Source: Eledone cirrhosa (Eukaryota). From it: a DNA stretch of 64,000 nt. Position numbers and translations under genes: made by a program. Shown piece after piece: positions 26,301-27,170 of this stretch (positions are counted from its first letter, which is position 1; the number at the start of each line of letters is the position of its first letter). The DNA lies in NCBI GenBank assembly GCA_964016885.1, contig OZ024745.1:38874001-38938000 (forward strand), written 5' to 3'. The notes under the pieces were generated by a model. The model had not been told where the DNA came from. It did no database searches and saw only the letters and a list, made by a program, of their open reading frames with translations.

Positions 26301-27170
26301 TATAGATAATTTAATATATCAACTAACATAAGCGCACAGATGTACGCCCATGCCAGCAAATACACAGGTTATGTCATAGTACCTAGGTGGTTCAATGCAG
26401 GAGAATGCAGAACAATAATATAAAGGACGTAAAATAAGAAAATATTTTTTTAAAAAAAATTTAAAAAATTAAAAAAAAAAATTTTTTTCTTACTTCAATT
26501 TTCACTCCAACTAATTAGTTTCTGCAATGGGATAAAGACAGTTACGTAATCCAACTGTCGAGAAAAAAAATTTTTTTTAAAAAATATTTTCTTATTTTAC
26601 GTCCTTTATATTATTGTTCTGCATTCTCCTGCATTGAACCACCTAGGTACTATGACATAACCTGTGTATTTGCTGGCATGGGCGTACATCTGTGCGCTTA
26701 TGTTAGTTGATATATTAAATTATCTATATTTATCTCCAAATCACTGATTTGTCGAGCAAACTTGTCAAAACCACTTCTAAAAAAATTTTTTTTGGGGTGT
26801 TAGTAGGCGTCAGTCATCTTACCATCCCATTCCTTCTAACTAGCCTCTGTGTCACGTGATTGATTCTTTAGAATCGGCCATTTGACTTGAAGCAGTGAGA
26901 ATTTCGGTACATAGAATCCAGTCCTCGCAAGCTGTTCGATCTACCGAATTATTATTATTTTTATATGAGCCGCCAGTGTCCGCGCATTGCCTGGAGACTT
27001 AACTGAGAATAGACTCCCTGATGACGCAATGAATTCTCGACAGTTGGATTACGTAACTGTCTTTATCCCATTGCAGAAACTAATTAGTTGGAGTGAAAAT
27101 TTAAGTAAGAAAAACAATTTTTTTTTAAATTTTTTTTAAAAAAATATTTTCTTATTTTACGTCCTTTATA
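26301..27170 (+). mobile_element. Retrozyme-like element: 560-nt monomer with terminal direct repeat, preceded by an inverted junction-spanning copy
   Basis: aaaatattttcttattttacgtcctttata at 26581 and 27141. The reverse complement of 26301-26564 equals 27034-27170 joined to 26610-26728. Confidence 0.85.
27013..27094 (+). ncRNA. Type I hammerhead ribozyme motif
   Basis: actcc-CTGATGA-cgcaatg(...gacagtt/aactgtc...)cattgca-GAAA-ctaattag-TT-ggagt. Confidence 0.82.

Follow-up and report, generated by a model that had tools for sequence, protein, structure and literature searches.

How does a short non-coding element come to lie in the genome as two head-to-head copies, one of which reads without a break from the end of the unit into its beginning? 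The question is raised by an 872-nt insert in the window (the whole 64,000-nt stretch of DNA that was analysed), for which an initial annotation had proposed that the template was either a circle or a concatemer of the unit. We examined the layout of the insert, its relatives in the same genome, and the alleles, joins and ends that those relatives carry.

The window insert and its hammerhead motif

The insert lies within a (TA)n tract (left flank 26181–26299, right flank 27172–27403) and consists of two arms with fused 5′ ends and outward-pointing 3′ ends. The inverted arm (26300–26564, minus strand) comprises 0.48 unit, monomer positions 423–560 followed by 1–118, and runs leftward into (TA)n at a 3′ end designated terminus B; TATAT microhomology leaves its left boundary ambiguous within 26296–26305. 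The direct arm (26568–27171, plus strand) comprises 1.08 units, positions 516–560 followed by 1–560, and runs rightward into (TA)n at terminus A. At the central junction (26565–26567) the fused 5′ ends of the two arms are separated by a 3-nt gap. The full monomer (26612–27171, plus strand) is 560 nt long in this copy and 556–558 nt in most others. Its first ~118 nt (26612–26729, plus strand), the 'tail' between the two termini, are predicted to form a long hairpin (fold z −4.1), and a slippage-prone A/T tract (27105–27152, plus strand) varies from unit to unit and served as a marker of copying.

The reverse complement of 26300–26570 aligns over 266 columns to 27034–27171 and then, unbroken, to 26612–26729, so the inverted arm does cross the end-to-start join of the monomer, as the initial annotation had read it. 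That the direct strand carries only a short piece of this join also holds, but the piece is 44–45 nt long (26567–26611, repeated at 27127–27171 with a spacing of 560) and not 30–40 nt. The arms had been called nearly identical, and they differ by a single base outside the A/T tract; inside the tract there are a 10-nt insertion and a 1-nt gap. Both carry 75A, an allele present in 8 of 113 loci.

No ORF of at least 150 aa overlaps 26300–27171. The G+C content of the family, 43% (185 of the 428 positions left unmasked; the masked ones are A/T tracts), lies below the limit of 45–50% that goes with non-LTR retrozymes, and the unit folded as a circle gives a predicted z of −4.6 (40 shuffles). An autonomous PLE is rejected as the identity of the unit, which is without an ORF for a reverse transcriptase and GIY-YIG endonuclease, and an LTR structure is rejected since the ends are (TA)n-flanked termini, not LTRs. 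We file the element, on its sequence features, as a putative non-LTR retrozyme, a non-coding unit of ~557 nt with a type I hammerhead motif and PLE-like insertion marks.

The hammerhead motif, identified by sequence and fold (z −2.4), lies at 27013–27094 (plus strand) and has a palindromic stem III, both as first annotated. Stem I pairs 27013–27017 with 27090–27094; the core consists of CTGATGA (27018–27024) and GAAA (27076–27079); stem II (27026–27031/27069–27074) has a C-A mismatch at its base and an internal hairpin, and carries a 51-nt insert; and the stem III palindrome, ACTAATTAGT, occupies 27079–27088. The features of a type I hammerhead (core CUGANGA, GAAA, NUH and helices I–III) are present, with a predicted cut at the triplet GUU, after 27089 (monomer position 478). 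The window copy contains one complete motif only.

Helix I is kept in all 31 motifs examined, and helix II is maintained by compensatory change across 26 distinct relatives: 98 of 104 cells are paired over the 26 distinct stem II inserts, and the second pair is A-T in 21, T-A in 3 and C-G in 1. None of 2000 shuffles reached 98 paired cells (mean 91.5), a count that is not a probability, as the sequences are related. The base of stem II is C-A, and not the usual G-C, in 22 of the 26 relatives, so ribozyme activity is not assured. A U-U mismatch at the base of helix II is reported in a working axolotl hammerhead (PMC7229834), and 8 of 9 Xenopus dimers assayed showed no cleavage (10.64898/2026.07.22.740005). 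The Rfam search returned no hammerhead match to the motif at E values up to 10, the Rfam matches being simple-repeat noise.

Reading through the join is by itself a known PLE layout, in which the inverted 5′ copy carries a tail at one end (PMC8557442, PMC3846280), and the window locus alone therefore cannot show a circle; it is only at the level of the family that the tests below favour a circle over a linear concatemer. Back-junction reads, the check suggested initially, would not be decisive because genomic arrays hold the same join.

Copies in the genome and the pairing of their termini

A DNA search of the same genome (3.0 Gb) gave 496 candidates, of which 40 were scored. The unit recurs at 95–100% identity in all 40 loci, mostly head-to-tail with a period of ~557 nt, which rejects chance resemblance. 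Exact-pattern counts gave 304 for terminus A, 570 for terminus B and 2479 for read-through of site B; the A-terminus pattern fails on an older subfamily, which has one altered base. One contig, C1, contains 108 loci with an exact terminus, which scales to an estimated ~700 loci genome-wide. The repeat, non-coding and 557–560 nt long, has several hundred young copies, among them the window insert.

We mapped 121 distinct insertions, 41 chosen by similarity to the monomer and 81 chosen by terminus from C1 (81 fetched out of 102 listed regions), with one locus common to both sets. L097 and L058 are one locus and were counted once; L148, which runs past its fetched region, and an older neighbouring arm in each of L045 and L104 were omitted. 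Seventy-three of the insertions have two arms and standard ends, 43 have a single arm, 3 have two arms but a second end at neither A nor B (L064, L092, L135), and 2 are unclassified. Arms contain 1–9 units arranged head-to-tail, in keeping with the initial proposal of a circle or concatemer template; arrays occur in both arms and are 98–99% identical to the youngest copies. Related units of ~515 nt, with 65–80% identity, have the same two termini, which indicates that the design is old. An assembly artefact is unlikely, since junctions differ at each locus and ends consisting of a terminus and (TA)n also occur in the contigs of run X6. Separately, pieces of the unit occur at low depth in runs coded as other organisms, with 292 nt identical in X4 and ~96–97% identity in X5.

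Fixed ends had initially been taken as the mark of an internal-deletion product of a longer linear PLE. No mapped locus has a flanking PLE body, and such an origin is rejected; the ends nevertheless proved to be fixed, at two 3′ termini ~118 nt apart, A at 27171 (position 560) and B at ~26729 (position ~118). The two ends of one insertion do not combine freely: each of the 73 two-armed insertions that have standard ends pairs A with B, with no A+A and no B+B among them. If the two sites were chosen independently and about equally often, A+B would be expected in half. Sixty-five of the 73 were assigned by script, L043, L047, L048, L053 and L058/L097 after merging or extension, and the remaining three (L075, L131, L141), in which the second arm is very short, from patterns or flanks. 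B is slightly displaced in 3 of the 73 (positions 108, 114 and 134). Pairing by coordinates across the whole of C1 gave A+B in 31 of 31 cases.

Among one-armed inserts sampled blind to their ends, 6 end at A and 5 at B, so either site can act. The central junctions (n = 75) are blunt or overlap by 1–12 nt in 55 cases, contain 1–40 extra bases in 17 and more in 3. Each is unique to its locus, and the A+B rule must therefore have been re-made at each insertion. The simplest reading is that each DNA end of one break would be assigned its own start site on one RNA. In two inserts foreign sequence has been captured between the arms, 411 nt in L101:577–989 and 234 nt in L114:2231–2466.

The repeat (TA)n adjoins 182 of 188 3′ ends, and any target-site duplication, which in non-LTR retrozymes exceeds 4 bp where there is one, would thus be hidden. 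A (CT)n run precedes the (TA)n flank at the B end of older relatives (L124:989–1049, L045:8315–8418, L192:773–1241). Microhomology with the target is rejected as the sole cause of the termini: TATAT/ATATA also ends at positions 103, 104 and 355, which are standard ends in none of the 41 insertions chosen blind to termini, and one arm, in L053, is interrupted at 355. Overall the insertions have the PLE-type layout of partial tandem, 5′ truncation, inverted 5′ copy, one-end tail and microsatellite target.

Inverted arms could in principle arise by self-priming on an antisense template, by twin priming of the L1 type or by fold-back repair, and not by a second target-primed reaction at a site of its own. 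An origin of this kind has been proposed for PLE inversions with palindromic junctions (PMC3846280), and in four loci here (L082, L090, L091, L113) the junction is a palindrome at which the two arms stop at the same position. Most junctions, however, join unrelated positions, the arms end at fixed and different sites beside (TA)n, either site is found alone or on either arm, and the stretches of template that the two arms cover have as much as several units in common. We regard these routes as very improbable.

Source and form of the template

Arms of the same locus share their alleles. They differ in 2 of 1279 comparisons at polymorphic sites (A/T tracts masked for SNP calls), versus 18.5% when arms were shuffled between loci, and at position 405 arm pairs agree in 46 of 46 cases (25 C/C, 21 T/T). 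The agreement in 1277 of 1279 comparisons rejects, for the ~557-nt family, an origin of the arms from two different source copies. The units of an array are alike in the same way. Family alleles are fixed across all covering units in 259 of 274 cases; among rare alleles, 26 are fixed in all units, 12 are partly shared and 105 are single, and in L049 a rare allele is fixed in 9 of 9 units over both arms. The 26 fixed alleles show no excess of A-to-G editing (A>G 4, T>C 4) that would mark an RNA template. A/T tracts differ by 3.0–3.7 edits within a locus versus 8.9 between loci, with no effect of adjacency (42 loci, P 0.39; L136 left out) or of same arm versus opposite arm (P 0.30).

These distances bear on the satellite route (10.64898/2026.07.22.740005), in which an insertion of about one unit would be expanded into an array afterwards, at the DNA level, through unequal crossing-over or slippage. 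Growth of this kind holds for at least one locus, L136/L218 (C1, from 301307821), where one arm has expanded into a satellite of at least 28 units with repeating blocks of variants in higher-order patterns, and some neighbouring units elsewhere have alleles in common (L047, L087, L096, L140). Against it as the general route, same-arm or adjacent units are no closer to each other than opposite-arm units, singletons outnumber partly shared alleles by 105 to 12, and the arrays are present in both arms at 98–99% identity to the youngest copies. We consider it improbable as the source of the arrays.

A second alternative keeps double priming by a PLE enzyme but takes as template a linear multimer, uncleaved or partly cleaved, derived from a genomic array or from RNA-to-RNA copying. 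It explains the A+B rule and the seamless joins equally well, is compatible with the accumulation of arm 5′ ends at the cut site, and has precedents in the multimeric RNAs of axolotl retrozymes (PMC7229834) and in an Anolis PLE that in vitro uses mainly unprocessed RNA (PMC11167929). If both arms were copied from one shared linear array transcript, unit k of one arm should mirror unit k of the other, yet none of 43 non-fixed alleles recurs at the matching rank in the opposite arm. The A/T tract varies within nearly all arrays, and even so rank-matched units are no more alike there (identical in 16 of 70 pairs) than unmatched ones (56 of 194; P 0.32). Nor can a linear multimer lengthen an array, yet rare alleles are fixed across 3–9 units. 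A few variant patterns are periodic, as a multimer would predict (L032 with period 2, L054 with period 4), and together with the satellite at L136/L218 they indicate that multimer templates or later duplication do occur. As the template for the family, a linear multimer strikes us as unlikely, although it is the strongest of the alternatives.

Other variant patterns occur at single loci. In L048/L217 one variant is repeated at units A3, A5 and B4, as would be expected from a template base that is repeatedly misread. A homopolymer run is lengthened in all units of L038, L040, L043 and L053, with a length that varies between passes, and in 1 of 8 units of L044. Two subfamilies are mixed within one arm of L074, and two alleles are confined to one arm of L096.

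Passes across the predicted cut site leave no trace in length. In 350 of 350 passes there is no indel at the site, and the 3′ half of the motif is intact or singly substituted. The 5′ ends of arms in the C1 set concentrate at the site and just 3′ of it: 23 of 122 fall at positions 477–500 (6.0 expected), 5 of them at 477–480 (0.95 expected), and one falls at 461–476, with 161 passes continuing beyond. (The split arms of L043, L053 and L058 were omitted from the 'all' hazard table.) This pile-up would be expected if a minority of templates were cleaved at the predicted cut, if the enzyme paused where the RNA had been ligated, or if it paused in helix I; linear RNAs with cleaved 5′ ends, or the pausing in stem I, explain it as well as a circle does.

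The same numbers bear on a third alternative, in which the template is a cleaved linear monomer and the reverse transcriptase, on reaching its 5′ end, repeatedly jumps back to the 3′ end of that molecule. Such jumping would impose the same one-monomer bottleneck, and in ~12% of passes copying does break off no more than 22 nt from the cut site (23 stops, 161 passes). Other retroelement enzymes often add or lose bases when they jump between templates, whereas 350 of 350 joins here have neither an added nor a lost base. We think this alternative unlikely, more so than the linear multimer.

The allele, rank, adjacency and join tests are consistent with a single monomer copied many times over, but fall short of proving that it was covalently closed. 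That one RNA was double-primed by a PLE-type enzyme we hold with considerable confidence. That the template was a closed monomer circle is probable, at a clearly lower level of confidence.

Candidate partners, proposed mechanism and known systems

A degenerate autonomous PLE adjoins the insert (27403–31310), with an inverted 5′ pLTR and ~60-nt tail at its left end, a broken RT ORF, a Cys-rich linker, a GIY-YIG domain and a hammerhead motif at 31108. This neighbouring PLE family is young (~97% protein identity), with open frames of more than 1,200 aa; in an open copy the RVT_1 and GIY-YIG matches are weak, below Pfam cut-offs. Its ends number 12,641 A and 11,079 B, and 41 facing pairs at most 4.5 kb apart comprise 38 A+B, 2 B+B (L211 being a true B+B) and 1 A+A. 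As the mobilising partner of the ~557-nt family it is rejected, since its termini are unrelated.

Hammerhead-pattern and GIY-YIG locus searches of the same genome did not find a mobilising PLE. A pattern with a shorter stem II gave 80 matches, and the 30 loci inspected (L164–L166 in part) were ~515-nt non-coding relatives or fragments with no PLE ORF; a looser pattern gave 1 match. No pLTR homology appeared in the 30 related-hammerhead loci or in 60 GIY-YIG loci, which make up a small share of a candidate pool exceeding 10,000, and no direct pLTR match in 30 Pfam GIY-YIG loci. Three matches in the 60 GIY-YIG loci were to separate retrozyme relatives nearby, of which two were inspected (L192, L236). 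The ~557-nt unit may have a remote PLE origin.

Several other features of the window are of related kinds. An older two-armed insert at 25773–26180, with arms 76% alike, contains a minimal hammerhead core (25985), and its right arm alone is extended, by ~90 nt. A two-armed insert of another family at 19910–20545 has hammerhead-like cores at 20095 (minus strand) and 20446 (plus strand); in this insert it is the left arm alone that carries an extension, of ~85 nt. A further copy of the same family lies near 34996, and the family is common elsewhere. Inverted arms at 43640–44300 are 91–95% alike, with a hammerhead core at 44111 that resembles that of the neighbouring PLE family. Further hammerhead-like cores lie at 35907, 46466 and 63319, the first two of which belong together, and 1856–10139 contains LINE-like ORF fragments with RVT_1 and zf-RVT matches.

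What a mechanism has to explain for the family is the unit and its arrays, the two termini with their A+B rule, the alleles shared between arms, the seamless joins and the (TA)n targets. Tandem transcripts would be cleaved by the ribozyme to monomers, and a monomer would be ligated into a circle. A borrowed PLE reverse transcriptase/endonuclease, acting as a dimer, would open a (TA)n tract by cutting both strands; one DNA end would prime the RNA at site A and the other DNA end the same RNA at site B. Rolling reverse transcription with strand displacement would then proceed round the probably covalently closed monomer, and the two cDNA ends would be end-joined in the centre of the insert. One-armed inserts would be cases in which one cDNA was lost or never primed. 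This account, a borrowed PLE enzyme with one RNA primed at A and B and copied round a probable circle, is the best explanation overall and, in our judgement, probably the correct one.

In twin priming by L1, both target ends prime one RNA and an inverted 5′ segment results; the segments divide one linear RNA between them with little overlap, the position of the second priming varies and one end carries poly(A). The insertions described here do not match this type, as their second site is fixed, the overlap between their arms amounts to whole units and there is no poly(A).

The element itself is of a known kind, and its value is as a record of mechanism. With metazoan non-LTR retrozymes, as the parts consulted of PMC7229834 and 10.64898/2026.07.22.740005 describe them, it shares a non-coding tandem unit, one type I hammerhead per unit with a palindromic short helix III, low G+C, a well-folded predicted circle and coexistence with PLEs. 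Its unit of ~557 nt compares with 170–400 nt in PMC7229834 and falls inside the 51–972 range of 10.64898/2026.07.22.740005. Head-to-head two-armed inserts, two fixed termini and (TA)n targeting are not described in those parts of the two papers. Circles of animal retrozymes have been seen by northern blot (PMC7229834), whereas the circle of the ~557-nt family is predicted from genome sequence, and pLTR homology was present in 21 of 57 Xenopus families (10.64898/2026.07.22.740005) versus none found in the loci sampled here.

Insertions of endonuclease-bearing PLEs (PMC8557442, PMC3846280) share partial tandems, 5′ truncation, an inverted 5′ copy, a one-end tail, a hammerhead near the 3′ end and microsatellite targets that hide target-site duplications. 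The ~557-nt family differs from them in having no ORF, a tail of ~118 nt and not 30–40, and arms that are often several whole units long; the one-end tail, a qualitative feature in the sections consulted of those papers, is here a counted rule (73/73).

There is also a biochemical likeness to the PAc Poseidon PLE, which in vitro cuts and extends both strands and has two internal start sites that bound the tail, the same on both strands, with a modelled dimer and with ribozyme cleavage dispensable for insertion (PMC11167929). The two tail-bounding start sites, the cutting and extension of both target strands, the AT-rich target and the predicted dimer all have counterparts, observed or proposed, in the present family. 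The PAc Poseidon start sites have no homology to the target and are not strand-specific, whereas here TATAT at both termini could base-pair with (TA)n, and no single insertion has the same site at both of its ends. PMC11167929 proposes a linear multi-copy mRNA as the template, where we favour a circle. Cleaved and ligated circles were proposed in 2014 as PLE templates for more-than-unit reverse transcription (PMC4209133), and a circular template again in 2020 (PMC7229834); the 2014 proposal, in the part consulted, came without a genomic or biochemical test, and the ~557-nt family supplies genomic ones.

Literature searches that covered open-access PMC and bioRxiv turned up no report of the A+B rule or of two-armed retrozyme arrays; the older PLE reviews of 2005 and 2006 fall outside their scope. 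A text search of the PMC11167929 supplements returned nothing on the A+B rule; Fig. S2 there, on insertion ends, and the supplements of 10.64898/2026.07.22.740005 lay outside that search and may bear on novelty.

Two questions in the literature meet in this family: how retrozymes enter animal genomes (PMC7229834), and how PLEs come to form tandem-plus-inverted inserts with a one-end tail (PMC8557442, PMC11167929). For each insertion the family predicts one RNA, one target end per start site and many passes over one monomer. More tentatively, and with confidence just short of even, we suggest that Penelope-type enzymes may integrate by twin-primed rolling-circle reverse transcription, in which a dimer would cut both (TA)n strands and two tail-bounding sites on a single ribozyme-made circle would each be primed by one DNA end, with both enzymes then copying round the circle. 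If this is true, the one step would explain how retrozymes and autonomous PLEs alike come to have tandem arrays, pseudo-LTRs, an inverted 5′ copy and a tail at one end, and PLEs would be eukaryotic retrotransposons with circular RNA as template and with double-strand priming.
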